Shown: positions 7,581 to 44,903, counted from the first letter of the stretch. The stretch is DNA of 64,000 bases from an uncultured virus (IMG/VR IMGVR_UViG_3300034101_003821) (IMGVR_UViG_3300034101_003821); one strand, 5' to 3'. Notes: generated from the sequence alone by a model not told the origin. Numbers and translations are program-made.

Positions 7581-7642
7581 AGAGGGTAATACTTTCCTTT
7601 TGACATAACGTTTATATTTATATAATATAAAATATATTGATT

Positions 7643-8401
7643 ATGGACATTGAAACTGAAAAATTTATAATAGAGGAATATAAAAAAGGGTTGGGTTCTG
7701 TAATGATTTCACGTAAAGTGGGGTTATCTAAACCTACGATATTAGCTGTAATAAAAAAACACAAACTAACGAGGTATAAAGATAGATGTAAATGTTTAAA
7801 AATAAAAGAAGTTGGTGACAAATTTACATTATCATGGACGTGTAAGATGTGTAAAAACGAATTCCAAAAAACCTCGAAAAATAAATCCGTATTGTGTCGT
7901 AATTATTACAACTCAATAAAAAAAAGTAGTAATTGTAAATCTTGTAGTTTATTATTACAGAGAGGTAAAGGAAATCCTTTTTATGGGAAAAAACATAGTA
8001 AACAAACACTCGATTTAATTTCCAAAAAAATATCTGAAAATCCACCAAAACAAAGTTGTGTGTCTAAATTGGAAAAAAAATTGTTGAGTGAAATTAAAAA
8101 TAGGGGAATAGATGCTAAAGGAACTGTGTCTATTGATAGATTTATATGTGATATTTTTATTGAAAAATACAATTTAATTATTGAATTTTATGGTGATTAT
8201 TGGCATTGTAATCCCAAAAAATATAAATCTGATTATTTTCACCCGCACAAAAAAAAGACAGCAAAAGAAATATGGGACGAGGATAAACTAAGAATTGATT
8301 ATTTGAAAAAAATGGGTTATAATTTAGAAGTTATCTGGGAACGTGAATTCTCAGATGATAAAAAATTAAACAAAATTATTAAAAAATATGTCAAAAATTA
8401 G
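7643..8401 (+). CDS. Free-standing homing-type endonuclease: HTH + Cys pairs + NUMOD3 + Vsr/DUF559-like PD-(D/E)XK nuclease
   Basis: NUMOD3-like GKGNPFYGKKHS; CDIFIEKYNLIIEFYGDYWH...GYNLEVIWE nuclease motif; CKMC and CKSC pairs. ATG at 7643 preferred over TTG 7637. Confidence 0.75.
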   Translation: MDIETEKFIIEEYKKGLGSVMISRKVGLSKPTILAVIKKHKLTRYKDRCKCLKIKEVGDKFTLSWTCKMCKNEFQKTSKNKSVLCRNYYNSIKKSSNCKSCSLLLQRGKGNPFYGKKHSKQTLDLISKKISENPPKQSCVSKLEKKLLSEIKNRGIDAKGTVSIDRFICDIFIEKYNLIIEFYGDYWHCNPKKYKSDYFHPHKKKTAKEIWDEDKLRIDYLKKMGYNLEVIWEREFSDDKKLNKIIKKYVKN

Positions 8402-9602
8402 AGTTCTAGTAACCCCCTCAGACACGACCGGAGTTGGAAAATTCAGAAGTGTAGACCCCCATGTAATGTTACAAAATATGTATCCAGATGACTTCCACGT
8501 GGATATTGATTATCAACCTAGAATTAATGATGTAAATTATTGGAAACAATATCAAATTGTTCATATACATAGGAATATTGGTAATAGTTACGAACATACA
8601 CCAAGTATTATTAATTTTTTGAAATCAATAGGTATTGTTGTTATTGTAGATTTGGATGATTATTGGTTACCAGGAAAGGAGCACCCAATTCATACATTGA
8701 TTGTACAAGACAAAATCCATGAGAAAATTATGGCAAATTTAAAAGTTGCAAGTTATGTTACTACAACTACAAATATCTTTGCTGATGAAATCAAAAAATT
8801 AAATAGAAATGTTGTCATTTTCCCAAATGCAATCGACCCAACTGAAAGTCAATTTAAACAACCTACTGAGAAATCAGATAGAATAAGAATTGGTTGGTTA
8901 GGTGGTTCATCTCACTTACATGACTTGAAATTGTTAGAGGGATTTGTCTCAAAGAATATATCTTTGAAGGATAAGGTACAATATGTGTTGTGTGGTTTTG
9001 ATACAAGAGGTACAATTACTGAAATAAACCAACAAACAGGTGAAAAGAAACAAAGACCAATCAACCCTGACGAAACAGTTTGGGCGAGATATGAAGAAAT
9101 TTTCACGAATAAATATGGTACAATTGATGATAACTACAAACAATTTTTACTTCAGTTTAAAGAAGAAGAATACCCAAATATAAGTGATTTACCATATAGA
9201 CGAGTTTGGACTAAACCAATCAATACTTATGCAACTAACTATTCAAAGTTTGATATATCAATGGCACCAATCAAAAACCATATATTCAATAGAGTAAAAT
9301 CTCAACTGAAAGTTATTGAGGCTGGTTTTTATAAAAAAGCATTAATTGCATCTGAAGTAGGACCTTATACAATTGACCTCAAACACGCTTTAAGTTTTGG
9401 TAATTTTACTGATGGAAATGCTTTGTTAGTTAAGGAAGAAAGAAATCATAGTGATTGGGCAAAAAATATTAAATTTCTTGTAAATAATCCGAATTTAATC
9501 GTAGATTTGGGTGAGAGATTATATGAGTCAGTCAAAGACAAATATGATTTAAGAAATGTTACAAGAGATAGAGCTCAATGGTACAAATCACTAATTAAAT
9601 AA
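8388..9602 (+). CDS. GT-B fold (GT4-like) glycosyltransferase
   Basis: DLDDYW, RIGWLGGSSH, FDISMAPI...FNRVKSQLKVIEAG motifs. Confidence 0.75.
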   Translation: MSKIRVLVTPSDTTGVGKFRSVDPHVMLQNMYPDDFHVDIDYQPRINDVNYWKQYQIVHIHRNIGNSYEHTPSIINFLKSIGIVVIVDLDDYWLPGKEHPIHTLIVQDKIHEKIMANLKVASYVTTTTNIFADEIKKLNRNVVIFPNAIDPTESQFKQPTEKSDRIRIGWLGGSSHLHDLKLLEGFVSKNISLKDKVQYVLCGFDTRGTITEINQQTGEKKQRPINPDETVWARYEEIFTNKYGTIDDNYKQFLLQFKEEEYPNISDLPYRRVWTKPINTYATNYSKFDISMAPIKNHIFNRVKSQLKVIEAGFYKKALIASEVGPYTIDLKHALSFGNFTDGNALLVKEERNHSDWAKNIKFLVNNPNLIVDLGERLYESVKDKYDLRNVTRDRAQWYKSLIK

Positions 9603-9608
9603 AAATAT

Positions 9609-10322
9609 ATGTTAATCAAACAACCAATTACTAAGATTTTATTTATGGACATTGAAACAGTTGGGGGTTGTCCCAACTATGATGTGTGTTCTAATTTAAA
9701 CCCATCTGTGGCTGACCAATTTGACAAATATTTTGATTGGTTCTTGAAAAGGTTTCCTGAAGATAACGAAATTAAAGAAGACCAAAAAAATATTGTATTT
9801 TCAAGTAGAGCTGGTTTAGTTCCTGAATTTGCAAAAATTATTTGTGTTAGTTTTGCATTTGTTTTAGATGATGGGTCTGTTAGAAAACAAACATTTTCAA
9901 ATGATAATGAACATCAATTGTTGAAAGATGTTCAAGGTTTATTAAACAAATGTGCAAAGTTAGATTTTTGGTTGTGTGGACATAATTTGAAAAACTTTGA
10001 TATCCCAATGTTGGCAAAACGTATGATTATTAATGGATTGATGCCTCCGGCACTTCTTCCATCATATGATACAAAACCTTGGGAAATCAAAGCAATTGAT
10101 ACCAAAGAAATTTGGCAATATGGGGCATATTCTTCAATTGGGTCACTCGATTTATTATGTTCTACTATGGATATACCAACTCCAAAGGATGGTGAGGTAA
10201 AAGGTGATAAAGTTCACTCAGAATATTGGGAAAAACAAAACATCAAGGGTATTAGTGAATATTGTGAAAAAGATGTTGATGTCTTAATTCAAATAATTAA
10301 AAAGTTAAAAGAACTCAGATAA
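9609..10322 (+). CDS. DnaQ-like / PolB-type 3'-5' exonuclease
   Basis: ExoI DIET, ExoII GHNLKNFDIP, ExoIII YCEKDV (DEDDy). Confidence 0.85.
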   Translation: MLIKQPITKILFMDIETVGGCPNYDVCSNLNPSVADQFDKYFDWFLKRFPEDNEIKEDQKNIVFSSRAGLVPEFAKIICVSFAFVLDDGSVRKQTFSNDNEHQLLKDVQGLLNKCAKLDFWLCGHNLKNFDIPMLAKRMIINGLMPPALLPSYDTKPWEIKAIDTKEIWQYGAYSSIGSLDLLCSTMDIPTPKDGEVKGDKVHSEYWEKQNIKGISEYCEKDVDVLIQIIKKLKELR

Positions 10323-10999
10323 TGCAAGGAAATATGAAAGATTTGTTTAAACAAGTCGATGATTTACAAAATTATTTAAAAGGAAAGGAAGATGAAATAG
10401 ATTACAATATTATCTATGAAACTTATGGAGTTGACATTAAACAACTAGAACAAGAAATGTTGAATTATGTCCCCAAACAAATACTTGGTTACACTAAACT
10501 TAATCCCGATGCTATTGACCCTAGTTACAATTATATAAGTGACTCAGGCTTTGACTTGTACTCAACAGAAGAAATTGTTGTAAACCCATTAGGTAGAGCT
10601 TTAATACCAACAGGATTGGCCTTTGACATCAAAGATGGTTATGAAATACAAGTAAGGTCAAAAAGTGGTTTAGCAATAAATCAGGGTTTATTTGTATTAA
10701 ATTCACCAGGAACTGTGGATTGTTTTTCTGAAGATATGAAAATTTTAACTATAAATGGTGAAAAACATATTAAGGATTTAAAAATAAATGATATAGTATT
10801 TTCATTCAATGAAAAAAGTTTAGAAATTGAAAAAGATATTGTTCTTAAAATTTTTGACACTAATGTACAAGATATATTGAAAATTGAGACTGAAGAAGGT
10901 GTACTTGAGGTAACCCCCAATTCAGAAATTTATACAAATAAAGGGATTGTTTTGGCCAAAGATTTACAAGAAAATGATGAGATAATTGTATTTTTTTAA
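10322..10999 (+). CDS. dut: dUTPase N-terminal part (aa 1-133) fused to the N-fragment of a split intein (aa 134-225)
   Basis: dUTPase motif 1 (DSGFDL), motif 2 (RSKSGLA) and the first half of motif 3 (NSPGTVD), followed directly by intein block A CFSEDMKILTING. Confidence 0.9.
   Translation: MQGNMKDLFKQVDDLQNYLKGKEDEIDYNIIYETYGVDIKQLEQEMLNYVPKQILGYTKLNPDAIDPSYNYISDSGFDLYSTEEIVVNPLGRALIPTGLAFDIKDGYEIQVRSKSGLAINQGLFVLNSPGTVDCFSEDMKILTINGEKHIKDLKINDIVFSFNEKSLEIEKDIVLKIFDTNVQDILKIETEEGVLEVTPNSEIYTNKGIVLAKDLQENDEIIVFF
10721..10996 (+). mobile_element. Split intein N-fragment (IntN, 92 aa)
   Basis: Begins at Cys1 (TGT 10721). Hint-fold pattern C-F...I-K-D-L...D-x-V-x-S...LEVTPNSEIYT...AKDL...D; ends at TAA 10997-10999. 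Confidence 0.88.
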
Positions 11000-11008
11000 C
11001 CAAGATAC

Positions 11009-11015
11009 TATTTAT
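11009..11015 (+). promoter_or_regulatory. TATTTAT motif upstream of the intervening endonuclease
   Basis: Same motif and similar spacing as before many structural genes; context TATTTATCAATAAAGATAA resembles TATTTATTAATAAAAGATAA at 38768. Confidence 0.5.
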
Positions 11016-11032
11016 CAATAAAGATAATAAGT

Positions 11033-11926
11033 ATGTCAGTAAAATGTAAAATTTGTGGGATTGAAAAACAATATTCAATTGTTGAACATTTAAAATTTGA
11101 ACATAAATTAACCTCAAAAGAATACAAAGAGTTATATCCAGGTAATTTAGTTAAATCAAAAGAATATGCAACAATATTTTCAGAGAAACAAAAAACTAAA
11201 TGGAGTGATACTGAATATAAACAAAAAATGACAAAATCTAGACAAGTATCCCATAATAAATCTGAATTCAAAAATAAAATGTCTAATATTATAAAAAAGA
11301 GACATAAAGAAACACCCGAAATCTATTCAGGTTTTACCAATTGGCATAAAAGTGAAAAATTTAAAGAGTGGGTCAAATCTGAAGATAGAATAAAAAAAAT
11401 ATCAAAAACATCAAAAGAAAGATGGGAAAATGAGGAGTATAGACAAAAAACAATCAAATCAATCGTAAAAGTGTTGGGTGATGGTAGATGTGAAAAAGGA
11501 AAAGAGTTTAGGGAAAATATGTCAAAAATTATTTCTGAATTATATAGTACAGGTAAATTAAGTAATACAAGTAACAAATATAAAACAGGAAAATATGAAT
11601 CAAAGGAAAATGAAACCTTTTTATATTCATCCTCATATGAATTGGAAACTATGATTTTTTTTGACTCAGTTAATTTTATAAAAAGATGGACGAACAAACA
11701 TGGTATTCGAATAAGATATTTTTATAATGGACTACACAGAAACTATGTTCCTGATTTTTACATTGAATTAGCCAATGGTAAAATCTTTTTAATTGAACTA
11801 AAGGGGTGGGAAACTGAGGAAGTATTAGTAAAACAACAATTTGCATTAAAAGAATACCCAAACTATAAATTGTTTTACTCAGTTGAAGAACTAAAAAATT
11901 TTATATATGAAAACAACGAAGATTAA
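11033..11926 (+). CDS. Free-standing endonuclease between the split-intein halves (Zn-finger + helical repeats + TnsA-like PD-(D/E)XK domain)
   Basis: N-terminal CKICG...HLKFEH; W-spaced Lys-rich helical repeats; C-terminal YSSSYE...RNYVPDFYI...LIELKG. Confidence 0.75.
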   Translation: MSVKCKICGIEKQYSIVEHLKFEHKLTSKEYKELYPGNLVKSKEYATIFSEKQKTKWSDTEYKQKMTKSRQVSHNKSEFKNKMSNIIKKRHKETPEIYSGFTNWHKSEKFKEWVKSEDRIKKISKTSKERWENEEYRQKTIKSIVKVLGDGRCEKGKEFRENMSKIISELYSTGKLSNTSNKYKTGKYESKENETFLYSSSYELETMIFFDSVNFIKRWTNKHGIRIRYFYNGLHRNYVPDFYIELANGKIFLIELKGWETEEVLVKQQFALKEYPNYKLFYSVEELKNFIYENNED

Positions 11927-12014
11927 AAAAATAACATCAGAAAAAAAACAAACTTATGATATAACAGTAAGTAATAATCATAACTTCTTTTGTAATAGTC
12001 ATTTGATACATAAT
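11907..12014 (+). mobile_element. Split intein C-fragment (IntC, 36 aa)
   Basis: MKTTKIKKITSEKKQTYDITVSNNHNFFCNSHLIHN; terminal His-Asn at 12009-12014 followed by TGC (Cys). Confidence 0.9.
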
Positions 12015-12209
12015 TGCGGTTATTTGGGTGAAGTAAAAGTTATAATTTTTAATACGAATTCAGACCAAGTAACAATAAAAAAAGGAATGAAAATTGCACA
12101 AGCAGTTTTATGTCCAGTAATAAACGGAAAATATGTTGATTTGGAACTAAAGAAAGATTTAGGTCAAAAAGACAGAGGTGATAACGGATTTGGCTCAACA
12201 GGAATATGA
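11907..12209 (+). CDS. dut: Split intein C-fragment (aa 1-36) fused to the dUTPase C-terminal part (64 aa)
   Basis: Block F TYDITVSNNHNFF and block G LIHN, then +1 Cys. Followed by CGYLGEVKV (rest of motif 3), KIAQAV (motif 4) and RGDNGFGSTG (motif 5). Confidence 0.9.
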   Translation: MKTTKIKKITSEKKQTYDITVSNNHNFFCNSHLIHNCGYLGEVKVIIFNTNSDQVTIKKGMKIAQAVLCPVINGKYVDLELKKDLGQKDRGDNGFGSTGI

Positions 12210-14107
12210 TTACTATAATATATTGTACAAGAACTTCAAATGAAGAACATAAAAAACATTTAATTAAAACTTCTGGTTTACATAACAAGTTGGAAGTTAT
12301 TGAAATCGTTAATAATGGTGAATCTCTAACCTCGGCATATAATAGAGGTTTATCACAAGCCTCAAATAGTATAGTTGTTTTCTGTCATGATGATTTGACT
12401 ATTGAAACTAATCAATGGGGTAACAAACTACTCAAAATTTTTGATAGAAATTTAGATTATGGAGTAGTTGGTGTTGCGGGTACAAAGTTTTTGTCCACAT
12501 CGGGTAGATGGTGGGAAGATATGAAAAAAATGTATGGAAAAGTAGCACATACACATAATGGTAAAACTTGGTTATCATCATATTCACAAGATTTGGGGAG
12601 TAATTTAGAGGAAGTTGTTGTTGTTGATGGATTGTTTTTTGCTATTGACAAAAATAGAATAAAAAAAACATTCAATGAAGAGTTTCAAGGATTTCATTTT
12701 TATGATGTATCTTTTTGTTTTGATAACTACTTGTCGGGTGTTAAAATAGGTGTAACAACAGAGATTAGAATTAATCATAAGTCGATTGGGATGACTAATT
12801 CTAAATGGGAGGAAAACAGAATTAAATTCACATCAAAATATGAAGATAATTTACCTGTATTCTTAAATAGAAAAATACACCCCAACGAGAAATTAAAAAT
12901 ATTAATTTCAACCACTAATTTTAATGGGGAATCAAATAAAGAAAAATTCATTTTCGAATTTGTGAAGTCACTTAAAAACAAAGGTCATCATTTGTACATA
13001 TGTTCAAATTTGGGAAATAGAATAACAAGTTTAGCTAAAAGAGAAGGAATAAATTTAAGTTCCATAAATGAACCTTTCGGTTATAAATTAGGTGATGGTA
13101 AATGGCAAATTAACACACCAAATGGTCTTCAACCAACACAAATAAATCAGTTGTATAAAATAAAAGAAATTGATTTTGATGTAATTCAACTTTTCGATGA
13201 TGAATTAACTGATTTTATTCAAAAGTGTTACCCAACAACACCAATTGAAAATTTTGAGTCGATTGGTAATGATAGTTTTTTATTTGACTTGAACTGGTTT
13301 CGTAATTTGAATAACATAGATAACATAATTGAAAAATATAAAAACAATATAACCCAACAAGTTTCTGAACAATTTAAACAAGAGAACTATCAAAAGAGTT
13401 TGAAATTTTTAACAGAAAAATACGTTAAAAATTTAGGTCCTCTAGTTAGTATCATTATCCCTTGTTTTAACGATGGTCAATATTTACCTGAGGCAATAAA
13501 ATCGGCTAAAGATTTAACATACTCAAATAAAGAAATTATCGTTATTAATGATGGGTCGAGTGATACAAAAACTTTGGAAATATTAAATAATTTAGATAGT
13601 GATATTAAAGTTTTACATCACGAAAGAAATAAAGGACTTTCTGCAGCAAGAAATACAGCTATTAAATCCTCACAAGGATATTATATATTACCACACGATG
13701 TTGATGATACATTTGATAAAAACTATTTGTTATTTGCAATTTATGAAGCTGAGAAGAATGAGAATTTGAGTCCAATATATTGTGATACAAATCATATTGG
13801 TTTTATACAAGGTATGGAAAAAAGACCTGAATGGTCATTGAGTAGATTAAAAAGAGGGCCTTTTATTGTAAGTTGTTCTTTGTTCAGAAAAAAAGCTTGG
13901 GACGATGTGTTAGGTTATGATGAATCTATGAAAGGGTGGGAGGATTATGATTTTTGGTGGAGAATAGGAAATAATGGGTATAAGGGAGTTAGAATACCTC
14001 TACCATTATTTAACTATAGACACATTAGACCAAGTATGATTCAAAACATCAAAAATGACGAAAGAAAATTATACGATTATATTATGAATAAACCTCTATC
14101 AAAATGA
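12206..14107 (+). CDS. Multidomain glycosyltransferase (GT-A N-terminal domain + partial GT-B-like segment + GT2 domain)
   Basis: AYNRGL..VVFCHDD; C-terminal LVSIIIPCFNDG...VINDGSSD...GLSAARN..DVDD..GWEDYDFW. Confidence 0.8.
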   Translation: MITIIYCTRTSNEEHKKHLIKTSGLHNKLEVIEIVNNGESLTSAYNRGLSQASNSIVVFCHDDLTIETNQWGNKLLKIFDRNLDYGVVGVAGTKFLSTSGRWWEDMKKMYGKVAHTHNGKTWLSSYSQDLGSNLEEVVVVDGLFFAIDKNRIKKTFNEEFQGFHFYDVSFCFDNYLSGVKIGVTTEIRINHKSIGMTNSKWEENRIKFTSKYEDNLPVFLNRKIHPNEKLKILISTTNFNGESNKEKFIFEFVKSLKNKGHHLYICSNLGNRITSLAKREGINLSSINEPFGYKLGDGKWQINTPNGLQPTQINQLYKIKEIDFDVIQLFDDELTDFIQKCYPTTPIENFESIGNDSFLFDLNWFRNLNNIDNIIEKYKNNITQQVSEQFKQENYQKSLKFLTEKYVKNLGPLVSIIIPCFNDGQYLPEAIKSAKDLTYSNKEIIVINDGSSDTKTLEILNNLDSDIKVLHHERNKGLSAARNTAIKSSQGYYILPHDVDDTFDKNYLLFAIYEAEKNENLSPIYCDTNHIGFIQGMEKRPEWSLSRLKRGPFIVSCSLFRKKAWDDVLGYDESMKGWEDYDFWWRIGNNGYKGVRIPLPLFNYRHIRPSMIQNIKNDERKLYDYIMNKPLSK

Positions 14108-14763
14108 TGAAAACTTGTTGTATTTTATATCACTCAAATATATTTTCAATCTACAAAAAAGAGTGGATTCAAAAGTGTTTAGATACAATTTTAAACCAAA
14201 CTTATACTAATTTTGATATTTTTGAATTGAATTATGGTGACGATAGTTCAAATTTGAAAGAAATATTTACTATCAATAAAAAACATTTTTTTTTCAAAGT
14301 TAAGATGAACAATCATGCCGAAGCAATGAATTTTCTTCTTGACTTAGTGTTCAAAGAAGAAAACTATGATATTTGTTTTAATATAAATTTAGATGATTTT
14401 TATACTCTAAATAGATTTCAACAACAAATTGACATTTTAAATGGAGATATTGATATAGTTTCCTCAGAATATGTTTTTACAAAAGAAACAAATGGGATTT
14501 ATAGTTTTAGTGCCCCAGTTGGTTTAGGAAATCACGATTTAGAAACTTTATTTAATATGGATATCACACCATTAGCTCACCCTTGTGTTGCATATACCAA
14601 AAAGTTTTGGTTAGAATTCGGTCCTTATATACCTCAAGAAATACCAAGAGAAGATAAAAATCTTTGGATTAGAAGTTACAGAAATGGTGCTAAATTACAT
14701 ATTATAAAAGAACCTTTGCTATTTTATAGAATTCATGATAAACAAGTAAGTAAAACTAATTAA
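14104..14763 (+). CDS. GT2-like glycosyltransferase
   Basis: CLDTILNQTY, NLDD, RF..QI, EDKNLW, LLFYRIH. Confidence 0.75.
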   Translation: MMKTCCILYHSNIFSIYKKEWIQKCLDTILNQTYTNFDIFELNYGDDSSNLKEIFTINKKHFFFKVKMNNHAEAMNFLLDLVFKEENYDICFNINLDDFYTLNRFQQQIDILNGDIDIVSSEYVFTKETNGIYSFSAPVGLGNHDLETLFNMDITPLAHPCVAYTKKFWLEFGPYIPQEIPREDKNLWIRSYRNGAKLHIIKEPLLFYRIHDKQVSKTN

Positions 14764-14764
14764 T

Positions 14765-15541
14765 ATGGTTTCAAGTTTTTTACAAGGTGGGTTAGGAAAT
14801 CAAATGTTTCAAATAGCTGCAGCATATGCGTTAGCTTTAAGAAATAATGATAAAGCAGTTTTTGATTTTGATAAATGTTTCACACCTTTACAAGGGTTCA
14901 AATCTACGAAGTATCAAAACACTTTATTCAAAAAAGTTACCAATATAAATAATTTTACCCCCTCCAAAATTTATTATGAACCAAAATTCAGTTATACTGA
15001 AATCGAATATCATAATAATATTCTTCTAAATGGATATTTTCAGAGTGAGAAATATTTTGAGGATTTTAAAAATGAAATTATAAATTTATTTGATTTTAAT
15101 GAAGATATTATAAATGAACTTACAAACTTCATAAATGAAATAAACTCCAATAATTTACCTACAAGTGTTATACATGTCAGACGTGGGGATTATCTTTTGA
15201 ATTCTGAATTTCACCCACCTTGTTCAAACGAATATTATTATGAGGGGATTGATATTTTAGGTAAATGTTGTTATATTTTTATATCCGATGACATCAATTG
15301 GGTAAAAAATGAGTTCATAGGTGAAAACTTTTTTTATTATAGTGGTAGTAATGAAATTGTGGACTTGACCCTAATGACTCTTGTAGATAACATAATAATT
15401 TCGAATAGTAGTTTTAGTTGGTGGGGGGCATACCTAAATAAAAATCCAAATAAAAAAATAATAACACCAAAAAAATGGTTCGGGATAAAAGGACCAAAAG
15501 AAACCGAAAATTTAATCCCAACAACATGGTTCAAAATTTAA
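14765..15541 (+). CDS. GT11 alpha-1,2-fucosyltransferase-like
   Basis: GGLGNQMFQ, GYFQSEKYF, HVRRGDY, SNSSFSWWGAYL. Confidence 0.88.
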   Translation: MVSSFLQGGLGNQMFQIAAAYALALRNNDKAVFDFDKCFTPLQGFKSTKYQNTLFKKVTNINNFTPSKIYYEPKFSYTEIEYHNNILLNGYFQSEKYFEDFKNEIINLFDFNEDIINELTNFINEINSNNLPTSVIHVRRGDYLLNSEFHPPCSNEYYYEGIDILGKCCYIFISDDINWVKNEFIGENFFYYSGSNEIVDLTLMTLVDNIIISNSSFSWWGAYLNKNPNKKIITPKKWFGIKGPKETENLIPTTWFKI

Positions 15542-30424: not shown

Positions 30425-31150
30425 ATGACACAAAGAAAAAAACCAACACAACCTCAGGAAACTGAAACAAAAAAAACTAAGAAAGAAATAATTTCTGAGA
30501 TTATTAAAAAAAAGTCGAAAGAAAAATTCCTGACTGAGAATCAAAAGTTTTATTATGATTTACTTAAAAAAAATCAAATAACAATTTGTTCAGGACCAGC
30601 AGGTGTTGGTAAATCATATATAGCAATGAAGGCAGCAATTGACTTATTAGCTGACCCTCAGTCACCATATGAGAAAATAATTATCGTAAGACCAGCTGTA
30701 GAAGCGGAAGAAAAATTAGGTGCATTACCTGGAAACGTAGAAGAAAAATTAGACCCATATATTTTTCCTTCATATTATTTGATGAACAAAATTATTGGGA
30801 AGGAAGCAAGAGAAAAACTTAAAGAAAACGATATCATCGAAGTTTTTGCCTTGGCGTATATGAGAGGTATGAATATTGACAACTCAATCTTGATATTTGA
30901 AGAAGCTCAAAATTCGACTCCAAATCAAATGAAATTACTCTTGACAAGGATAGGTTTCAATAGTAAATTTTTCATAAGTGGTGACCTTGAACAAACGGAT
31001 AGGTACAAAGATAAAACACATACAGGACTTTATGATGCCATTAAAAAGTTTAAAGAACTTGATGATGTGGGTATTTTTGAATTCTCTAATCAAGACGTTG
31101 TAAGAAATCCATTAATTGGTAAAATCTTAAGAAGATACGAAGATAAATGA
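30425..31150 (+). CDS. phoH: PhoH-family ATPase
   Basis: GPAGVGKS, RPAVEAEEKLGALPG, AYMRG, EEAQN, LTRIG..SK..ISGD..Q.D. Confidence 0.92.
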   Translation: MTQRKKPTQPQETETKKTKKEIISEIIKKKSKEKFLTENQKFYYDLLKKNQITICSGPAGVGKSYIAMKAAIDLLADPQSPYEKIIIVRPAVEAEEKLGALPGNVEEKLDPYIFPSYYLMNKIIGKEAREKLKENDIIEVFALAYMRGMNIDNSILIFEEAQNSTPNQMKLLLTRIGFNSKFFISGDLEQTDRYKDKTHTGLYDAIKKFKELDDVGIFEFSNQDVVRNPLIGKILRRYEDK

Positions 31151-44222: not shown

Positions 44223-44903
44223 CTATGAAAACTTGTTACCCTTTTTAATATTTTCTATTCCCCACATTGGTTGAAGATTTTCTAACGACCAACACTTCTT
44301 AAACTCATCATCTCCACTACTCTCAAATATAAACGATGATATTGGTTTAATATGGTCAATATGCCACTCACCATAGTTATCCCAATTCATCCCATCGTTA
44401 AATTGTTTTTGTAAATGTACAATAAGTTCCTCAGGTGAGTAACCCAAGATATCAAAGTAGTGTCCGTACTTCTGTAAATTGTTTTCTTTAAGTACTATGT
44501 ATATTGCAGTTCTAAAGTTAGAGATGAGTTTATAAATTGGGTCAGTATGTCTTTTGTGTTTTTGATATTCTCGTTTTTTTTCTCGATGTTTATTAATATT
44601 ATTTTCTCTCCATTCTTTATGATATGAATTTAATTTATCCCTATTATTTTTTTGCCATTCTTTGTGATAAATCGTTTTCTTCTCTTTGTATTTTTCATAA
44701 GTTCTTTTATATGTGGCTTTTTTACCTCCTTTGAACTTTTTACCAGGGACACCAACTTTCACATTGTTTTCTTTTAATATACGTAATACAATATGTTTAT
44801 TAATACCCAATCTTTCGGATATACTGGGACTACCCAACATTTCGTCATTGTATAACCTTATTATTTCGTTAACTATTTGTTTATCTAATTGTATCTTTTT
44901 CAT
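44223..44903 (-). CDS. Free-standing HNH homing endonuclease with N-terminal HTH
   Basis: WHIDHIKPISSF...CWSLENLQPMWGIENIKKGNK; immediately downstream of the capsid gene. Confidence 0.8.
   Translation of the reverse strand: MKKIQLDKQIVNEIIRLYNDEMLGSPSISERLGINKHIVLRILKENNVKVGVPGKKFKGGKKATYKRTYEKYKEKKTIYHKEWQKNNRDKLNSYHKEWRENNINKHREKKREYQKHKRHTDPIYKLISNFRTAIYIVLKENNLQKYGHYFDILGYSPEELIVHLQKQFNDGMNWDNYGEWHIDHIKPISSFIFESSGDDEFKKCWSLENLQPMWGIENIKKGNKFS

Follow-up and report, generated by a model that had tools for sequence, protein, structure and literature searches.

A phage dUTPase gene fractured by a putative mobile split-intein cassette with a free-standing nuclease gene

The dUTPase gene described here lies in a 64,000-nt stretch of DNA from an uncultured virus (IMG/VR IMGVR_UViG_3300034101_003821), the whole of which is referred to below as the window. 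The gene is broken into two open reading frames (ORFs) with a gene for a putative homing endonuclease between them and, judged from its sequence and those of its relatives, it is a genuine, mobile and selected fractured gene. Our reading, which we consider very probable, is that a mobile split-intein cassette carrying the homing endonuclease gene broke the dUTPase gene, and that the dUTPase is restored by protein trans-splicing. The parts of the locus, in window coordinates, are these:

10322..10720, plus strand: N-extein of the dUTPase, 133 aa, with an N-terminal extension of about 55 aa, motifs 1 and 2 and the first half of motif 3
10721..10999, plus strand: N-terminal intein fragment (IntN), 92 aa (10721-10996) and a TAA stop; Hint-family matches, below curated cut-offs; Cys1 at 10721-10723, block B Thr65 at 10913-10915, Ser68 at 10922-10924
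11006..11027, plus strand: conserved intergenic motif TACTATTTATCAATAAAGATAA, directly 5' of the nuclease start codon
11033..11926, plus strand: free-standing putative homing endonuclease, 297 aa, with a zinc finger, a helical middle and a PD-(D/E)xK domain; invariant residues E203 at 11639-11641, D241 at 11753-11755, E255 at 11795-11797, K257 at 11801-11803
11907..12014, plus strand: C-terminal intein fragment (IntC), 36 aa, with Asp18 and His25 of block F and His35-Asn36 of block G (12009-12014)
12015..12209, plus strand: C-extein of the dUTPase, 64 aa and a stop, with the +1 Cys (12015-12017), GYLGE and motifs 4 and 5
10721..12014, plus strand: entire mobile cassette, 1294 bp that the intein-free allele lacks, from the alignment to contig L162

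In the mechanism that we propose, the cassette would have been inserted into the phage gene directly past the Asp codon of motif 3. Three proteins would be made from the locus, namely the N-terminal part of the dUTPase with an acidic IntN, the nuclease, and a basic IntC with the C-terminal part of the dUTPase. IntN and IntC would associate into one Hint fold, and the exteins would be ligated by protein trans-splicing by way of Cys1, the +1 Cys and cyclization of Asn36, to give a 197-aa dUTPase with the motif 3 GTVD-C-GYLGE and the junction peptide ...GTVDCGYLGEVK. The nuclease presumably cuts intein-free alleles at the highly conserved DNA of motif 3, around ...GGTACTGTAGAT/AGTGGCTATTTGGGT, and repair of the cut allele would copy the cassette in. 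Splicing, the activity and target of the nuclease, and activation of the N-terminal scissile bond without the usual histidine of intein block B are the steps of this scheme that we infer.

Results

A dUTPase gene in two pieces

ORF 10322-10999 (225 aa) begins as a dUTPase. Its N-extein matches the dUTPase family phrog_135 (E 9e-27) and the dUTPase of PDB entry 8hrv (E 2.4e-19) and ends in ...NSPGTVD, Asp133 being the -1 residue. Matches to Hint families begin at Cys134, the first residue of IntN. ORF 11907-12209 (100 aa) opens with an intein C-terminal region that ends in His-Asn, continues with Cys and then reads as dUTPase, the GYLGE of the C-extein being the second half of motif 3; the profile for the intein C-terminal region, TIGR01443, scores 19.1 bits on IntC against a cut-off of 15.6. 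The N-extein covers positions 4-63 of the 129 positions of profile PF00692 and the C-extein positions 71-129 (E 3e-12), so that both taken together span it end to end, and on the dUTPase model TIGR00576 they cover 4-98 and 82-142 of 143. Joined, the 133 and 64 residues give a protein of 197 aa with an intact motif 3, and the intein-free relatives measure 197-200 aa. All three ORFs are co-oriented, and the two halves of the dUTPase lie in different frames with the 297-aa nuclease gene between them. IntN carries blocks A and B and IntC blocks F and G, which places the break between blocks B and F. A preliminary description of this DNA had set out the ORFs and their residues, the dUTPase motifs, the switch to a Cys-initial IntN at 10721, the His-Asn end of a 36-aa IntC, the joined 197-aa dUTPase and the interposed nuclease gene, and in all of these it holds.

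The exact empty site and the family of related loci

The metagenome contig L162, which is syntenic with the window at 89-90% DNA identity, carries an uninterrupted dUTPase gene and provides the exact empty site. Window positions 8840-10723 align to L162 1-1884 and positions 12018-15206 to L162 1885-5073; because the two blocks abut at 1884/1885, the insert comes to 1294 bp (10721-12014). The L162 allele reads ...GGTACTGTAGAT AGT GGCTATTTGGGT..., with AGT (Ser) at the +1 position where the window has Cys. Two intein-free proteins, P0056 and P0059, are identical to the window at 133 of 133 N-extein residues and at 61-62 of 63 C-extein residues, likewise with Ser at +1, and in three others (P0105, P0106 and P0116) all 63 residues past the +1 position are those of the window's C-extein. 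At 83 distinct intein-free sites, drawn from 202 loci, the +1 codon specifies Asn in 61, Ser in 21 and Gly in 1; the intein-bearing alleles have Cys there, with one Ser exception among the best 120 relatives. The first and second codon positions of L-N-S-P-G-T-V-D are all invariant, or nearly so, at the same 83 sites. No clear co-conversion tract was seen between the window and L162, their identity in 100-nt bins being 0.83-0.89 in the dUTPase flanks and 0.85-0.97 elsewhere.

The fractured arrangement recurs in independent assemblies. Contigs from 4 of 24 runs were compared with the window, and those of three lake-water runs (of 2020, 2023 and 2024) cover the locus, at 10000-12119, 10056-12600 and 10089-12119, with 0 differences and 0 gaps; the assembly error that the preliminary description had wished to see excluded finds no trace in them. 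Of the words sampled from 10250-12300, at least 0.99 are present in each of nineteen lake-water runs (2020-2024), any of which may be the source of the window DNA. Among related viral loci (80 kept of 110 confirmed), the order of N-extein with IntN, nuclease, and IntC with C-extein is found in 28 and an uninterrupted dUTPase in 52. The window and the 28 fractured loci make up 11 sequence variants, and chance falls far short of explaining the three-ORF arrangement. Some variants have the nuclease in frame with IntN and others do not, and read-through is therefore not conserved.

Searches with the separate fragments reveal a much larger group. The best 120 of 4396 relatives of the N-fragment fall, by pattern class, into 96 proteins in which an extein ending in ...D is followed directly by an IntN starting CF..., 16 contiguous dUTPases of 197-200 aa and 8 others; by eye, the last are four full-length split fragments, two truncated split fragments and two truncated intein-free proteins. 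Among the best 120 of 335 relatives of the C-fragment, 106 have H-[LIVM]-[LIVM]-H-N followed by C. IntN alone, searched against 1.84 billion cluster representatives, gave 646 matches; 47 of the best 150 were scanned against Pfam, and 23 of these 47 proved to be additional, diverged N-fragments of dUTPase with IntN at their end. The fractured dUTPase element is thus no rarity but a large family of freshwater metagenomes, mostly annotated as plain dUTPase. Alleles with a contiguous intein or without the nuclease were seen neither among the 80 viral loci nor among the best 120 N-fragment relatives (123-394 aa) and the best 150 of the 646 IntN relatives, which were taken at any length.

Mobility of the cassette and selection on its parts

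For the extein tree, 237 usable loci (35 intein-bearing and 202 intein-free) were taken, loci with incomplete extein matches being left out, and identical exteins were collapsed into 100 unique types, 8 of them intein-bearing. The distribution of the intein-bearing types on this tree entails at least six changes of state, and well-supported branches force four of them. The approximately unbiased (AU) test rejected monophyly of the intein-bearing exteins (p-AU 1.4e-53); several intein-bearing rows are on long branches, a weakness that extends to the test. Loci L014 and L029 share 49% of the residues of their exteins, 83% of those of the intein and 86% of those of the nuclease, and L023 and L029, whose exteins are sisters (68% of residues shared), have nucleases that are 63% identical. 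In the four closest pairs the synonymous divergence (dS) of the cassette, 0.55-0.89, is lower than that of the flanking exteins, 1.0-2.4 (near saturation). Because the tree of the cassette conflicts with that of the host gene and monophyly of the intein-bearing exteins is rejected, the cassette is, on this phylogenetic evidence, a mobile element and not an ancestral split. Between L014 and L021, dS is 0.055 for IntC, 0.73 for IntN and 0.59 for the nuclease, a disparity that suggests recombination inside the cassette.

All three parts of the cassette are under purifying selection, the ratio of nonsynonymous to synonymous divergence (dN/dS) being 0.08-0.15 for IntN, 0 to 0.17 for IntC and 0.10-0.21 for the nuclease. 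The exteins that flank the cassette have dN/dS values of 0.11-0.45, and all five dUTPase motifs are kept in 9 of the 11 variants.

The two intein halves

In an alignment of 64 sequences of IntN (A2), Cys1 (Cys134 of the N-fragment) and the block B Thr65 are invariant. Asp18, His25, His35 and Asn36 are invariant in an alignment of 48 sequences of IntC (A3), where the +1 Cys (C37) is conserved in at least 90%. IntC weakly matches the IntC regions of gp41-1 (6qaz) and NrdJ-1 (8ubs), which are among the nearest solved IntC sequences. IntN has 20 D/E against 10 K/R and IntC 2 D/E against 6 K/R, exactly as previously counted, for net charges of -10 and +4. The modeled complex of IntN with IntC gave an interface score (ipSAE) of 0.78, compared to 0.00 for the best of three controls; the mark applied is reached by 116 of 157 solved complexes and by 2 of 215 mismatched pairs. 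The runs share at least 95% of their contacts, and the model confidence (pLDDT) of the partner is at least 77. Charge complementarity and the model both predict that the fragments associate into one Hint fold, although the score may mirror likeness to known structures and not the binding of this pair, since split inteins have already been solved.

Evidence against trans-splicing and alternative explanations

Several observations weigh against a functional trans-splicing dUTPase, one of them being the absence of the block B histidine, which the preliminary description overlooked and which makes splicing competence less certain. Block B retains its Thr (T65), and its His is replaced by Ser68, the residue that aligns with the block B His of the solved Spl DnaX, NrdJ-1 and DnaB inteins (7cfv, 8ubs and 4o1r). 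This His is highly conserved among inteins, and its mutation can leave an inactive precursor (PMC7765530; here and below, papers given by PMC number are cited for the portions of their text available to us). The intein profiles other than TIGR01443 stay below their cut-offs (TIGR01445, 17.7 against 24.5; PF07591, 23.3 against 27.7; PF14890, 23.4 against 35.8), their scores being lowered because each half was scored alone. Two variants have damaged C-exteins: in L013 (2064-2246) an in-frame deletion removes motif 4, together with a deletion in the nuclease, and in L021 (3349-3615) an in-frame TAA stands directly before motif 5. Either the host gene has decayed in some lineages or these are errors in short contigs. 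A second dUTPase elsewhere in the genome is also possible, the virus record being estimated at 66% complete. The earlier proposal that active dUTPase is made only by trans-splicing is accordingly upheld in its split-intein structure and not in its strict "only", because of this incompleteness and because the host may supply its own Dut.

The intein halves could, alternatively, have ceased to splice and merely hold the dUTPase fragments together as a two-chain enzyme. Such a reading would suit the lack of the block B His in the entire dUTPase-hosted clade as well as the complex model, which supports association and is silent on chemistry, and it has a parallel in a split NrdA of a phage that is assembled by interaction domains without splicing (PMC3045599). 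We nevertheless regard it as improbable. About 100 clusters at 90% identity show no change at Cys1, Asn36 or His35 and hardly any at the +1 Cys, residues that association alone would not need. The break falls inside motif 3 beside the conserved Asp, where an insertion of some 130 residues ought to interfere with the active site, and the presence of Cys at +1 in intein-bearing alleles, compared to Asn, Ser or Gly at intein-free sites, fits the need for a nucleophile. It is less probable still that the dUTPase is effectively dead, the cassette being a purely selfish, gene-breaking insert in a phage that uses the host Dut. The damaged C-exteins of 2 of the 11 variants and an intein without a normally essential residue would agree with this, but the flanking exteins are under purifying selection with all five motifs kept in the other nine variants, IntN and IntC are constrained (dN/dS at most 0.17) in a way that a dead gene would not require, and lineages with no more than about 50% of extein residues in common still have the arrangement.

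The least credible alternative, to which we attach next to no weight, is that the stop and the frame change are assembly errors in a contiguous intein, or that the insert is removed from the RNA. Nothing was found in its favour, and the assemblies and comparisons refute it as far as such data reach. The contigs of three runs are identical to the window, and the stop, a nuclease ORF of its own and the IntC start that overlaps it recur in 11 diverged variants. No intron family of Rfam matches 10200-12400 at E of 1 or below. No RNA run is listed among those that contain the locus; one lake-water run, X20 (guessed to be RNA), covers only 10 of 30 bins, and its contigs come from relatives. A 357-nt contig from it joins 10719 to 12018, reading CAGT (Asp-Ser-Gly), and departs from the window at 9 of 112 nt left of the join and at 2 of 241 nt right of it. 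We considered it as a spliced transcript of the window DNA and ruled this out; the other letters at the join (CAGT) and the 9 differences in 112 nt identify it as the intein-free allele of a close relative. Trans-splicing is preferred over its rivals because the splicing nucleophiles are invariant, the +1 residue switches to Cys and selection acts on both the exteins and the intein halves, and because no Rfam intron was matched and independent assemblies agree.

A clade of split inteins without the block B histidine

The loss of the histidine is a property of the clade. In 29 diverged dUTPase-hosted cluster representatives the column holds Thr in 24, Ser in 4, Lys in 1 and His in none, compared to His in 9 of 9 related split-intein N-fragments of other hosts. 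The hosts of seven such His-bearing relatives that were scanned are a UvsW-like helicase (two), ribonucleotide reductase (one) and DnaE (one), with no host family match for the remaining three. In 65 of 96 sequences IntN is without any His. Also specific to the clade are an Asp at -1 (29 of 29 representatives) and Phe2 (27 of 29).

With the His replaced, activation of the N-terminal splice junction would have to proceed by some other route. It is a plausible though tentative view, which we rate a little short of probable, that the dUTPase-hosted split inteins constitute a large, actively spreading trans-splicing clade with Ser or Thr in place of the block B His. If true, the N-terminal scissile bond would be activated by an undescribed route, for which the candidates are the -1 Asp, a residue of dUTPase motif 3 (extein-assisted catalysis), the near-invariant Phe2, and Cys29 and His32 of IntC. 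Our guess is that the invariant -1 Asp is the leading candidate for the compensation. The active site of the intein would then have co-evolved with its single insertion site, and the pair would be a mechanistically distinct, probably orthogonal tool.

Inteins that lack the block B His have been described as a "very small subset", and in an engineered intein bulky -1 residues can compensate for its absence (PMC6333167). The known cases include the degraded pseudogene Arth_1007 as well as Tko CDC21-1, an intein in which a Lys compensates (PMC7765530). Tko CDC21-1 and its orthologs likewise make up a natural clade with the His replaced (PMC7765530, PMC6333167). That intein is, however, contiguous and archaeal, hosted by the CDC21 helicase and compensated by Lys with Leu at -1 (PMC7765530, PMC6333167), whereas the intein of the window is split and phage-borne, with Ser or Thr at the position of the His, an invariant Asp at -1 and a near-invariant Phe2.

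The nuclease between the halves

The 297-aa nuclease appears to be composed of a zinc finger of the Cys2His2 type (C5, C8, H19 and H24), a helical middle (about 43-173) and a PD-(D/E)xK domain (about 160-297). In an alignment of 45 sequences (A1), H19, H24, E203, D241, E255 and K257 do not vary and C5 and C8 hardly do, and P240-D241 with E255-x-K257 make up the PD...ExK motif, invariant in all 45. Its 68 relatives constitute one tight family of about 294-297 aa, the full-length members of which are at least 54% identical; none carries a Pfam domain in the precomputed annotation, and where the source gives a name it is "hypothetical". The nuclease itself had no Pfam family above cut-off, no GIY-YIG family in scans of Pfam, PHROGs and NCBIfam, and no meaningful sequence match in the PDB (best E 0.1). 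The NCBIfam TnsA-like model gave 13.1 bits against a cut-off of 110.

The AlphaFold2 model (mean pLDDT 88.9) revealed a zinc-finger-like unit, the helical middle and an alpha/beta domain at the C-terminus, whose closest structural match is TnsA (Foldseek E 5.4e-4; VIA-align Z 8.0, root-mean-square deviation 3.9, 127 residues aligned, where a Z below 8 can mean a common fold only), followed by Bax1, VRR_NUC and Hjc. The prokaryotic Cys2His2 zinc finger Ros (2jsp) matches residues 1-69 weakly (Z 4.0). Because the PD...ExK triad is invariant, the assignment of the nuclease to the PD-(D/E)xK superfamily, from sequence and model together, is convincing. TnsA, the endonuclease subunit of the Tn7 transposase (1t0f, 1f1z), resembles it in fold and in an active site of the E / D / x-K type, at a sequence identity of 12%, and the locus in the window lacks a TnsB/TnsC context; the shared fold does not indicate a transposase role.

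Vsr-like homing endonucleases have the motif EDxHD, whereas that of the nuclease in the window is a canonical PD...ExK. Homing endonucleases of the I-Bth0305I/Vsr-like kind (3r3p; PMC3239194) resemble it as phage mobile-element enzymes with a restriction-endonuclease-like fold and a separate N-terminal DNA-binding part. The structural likeness is generic, with Z 4.8 for I-Bth0305I (3r3p) and 4.3 for Vsr (1cw0), compared to 8.0 for TnsA. Neither a second intein nor a second copy of the nuclease was found in the 194.5-kb virus record.

Intergenic motif and signals for expression

Between the stop of IntN and the start of the nuclease lies a 22-nt motif, TACTATTTATCAATAAAGATAA, which is almost invariant in nine variants whose neighbouring coding DNA has diverged. 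It holds the inverted repeat TTATC...GATAA, with a predicted hairpin of -8.1 kcal/mol, and occurs once in the window at up to three mismatches. The motif may control expression of the nuclease. Control elements and hairpins upstream of the endonucleases of fractured genes have been described (Dassa, London, Stoddard, Schueler-Furman and Pietrokovski 2009, PMC2677866). We considered the motif as an RNA hairpin and rejected this, the changes in the outer stem being disruptive and not compensatory by eye. A general promoter was likewise discarded, given the single occurrence in the window; in the whole record there are seven reverse-strand matches at three mismatches, compared to one or two for the reversed control, and these are uninformative because the DNA is 29% GC. 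Scans for sigma-70-type promoters and for terminators gave no more sites than shuffled sequence. At the other end of the nuclease gene, the start codon of IntC lies 20 nt inside the 3' end of the gene, in another frame (11907-11926; overlap ATGAAAAC...). All nine variants keep this overlap, a sign that translation of the C-terminal fragment may be coupled to that of the nuclease.

Genomic setting

The virus record, of which the window is a part, is 194.5 kb long with a GC content of about 29% and belongs to a large uncultured phage from a lake. At 45-55 kb the window carries genes for the portal, large terminase, prohead protease and major head protein, which mark a tailed phage. Among named phage genomes there were three weak matches, to Bacteroides phages and covering 2-3% of the query, and no cultured relative was found. 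Genes for sugar metabolism flank the dUTPase in a long run (8388-30409); among them are several glycosyltransferases, aminotransferases and nucleotide-sugar epimerases, a UDP-glucose dehydrogenase and an NAD-synthetase-like protein, and PhoH comes next at 30425-31150. ORF 7637-8401, which lies three genes upstream of the dUTPase, matches the homing endonuclease family phrog_3339 (E 5.8e-7) and may be a second mobile nuclease near replication genes. An endonuclease VII-like ORF (44226-44903; phrog_1035, E 1.3e-14) adjoins the gene for the major head protein, a protein of 622 aa that is matched by head-protein families at residues 353-599 only.

Discussion

The hosts named for fractured genes are gp41 helicase, IMPDH, DnaE, NrdA, NrdJ, DNA ligase and terminase (PMC2677866), and the dUTPase gene of the window follows their pattern. 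As in gp41-1, NrdJ-1 and IMPDH-1, a conserved phage enzyme of nucleotide metabolism or replication is broken by a split intein (PMC2677866). The genes described in 2009 also share with it the break at the usual point of endonuclease insertion, between blocks B and F, a free-standing endonuclease on the same strand between the halves, a conserved upstream element, an acidic IntN and a basic IntC (PMC2677866). They differ in their endonucleases, which are GIY-YIG or Vsr-like (PMC2677866), that of the window having a Cys2His2 zinc finger and a TnsA-like PD...ExK domain, and the split intein of the window departs from the 2009 description in lacking the block B His (PMC2677866).

The expectation that dUTPase is a new host for a split intein agrees with the literature searched, mostly judged by title, in which no dUTPase-hosted intein was found, an unpublished database entry being possible. 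The words "dUTP" and "deoxyuridine" are absent from the available text of the 2009 paper (PMC2677866), and "dUTP" from the main text, as available, of a 2015 intein survey and of the 2020 split-intein library (PMC7090010). The kind of system is thus known; its host, insertion site, nuclease architecture and His-less block B set it apart.

Cassette-bearing and cassette-free alleles with near-identical flanking protein occur in public metagenomes, which suggests ongoing invasion or loss. The split inteins of fractured phage genes (gp41-1, NrdJ-1 and IMPDH-1) are the fastest tools for protein ligation, and orthogonal pairs are wanted (PMC7090010). To these the dUTPase-hosted family adds a new host and a new insertion site, directly past the conserved Asp of motif 3. 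Its nuclease presents a homing-endonuclease architecture, a zinc finger with a TnsA-like domain, that may recognize a defined, highly conserved target of 30-40 bp. With about 100 sequence clusters to compare, the family also lends itself, as a natural experiment, to the question of whether and how inteins function when the block B His is missing.

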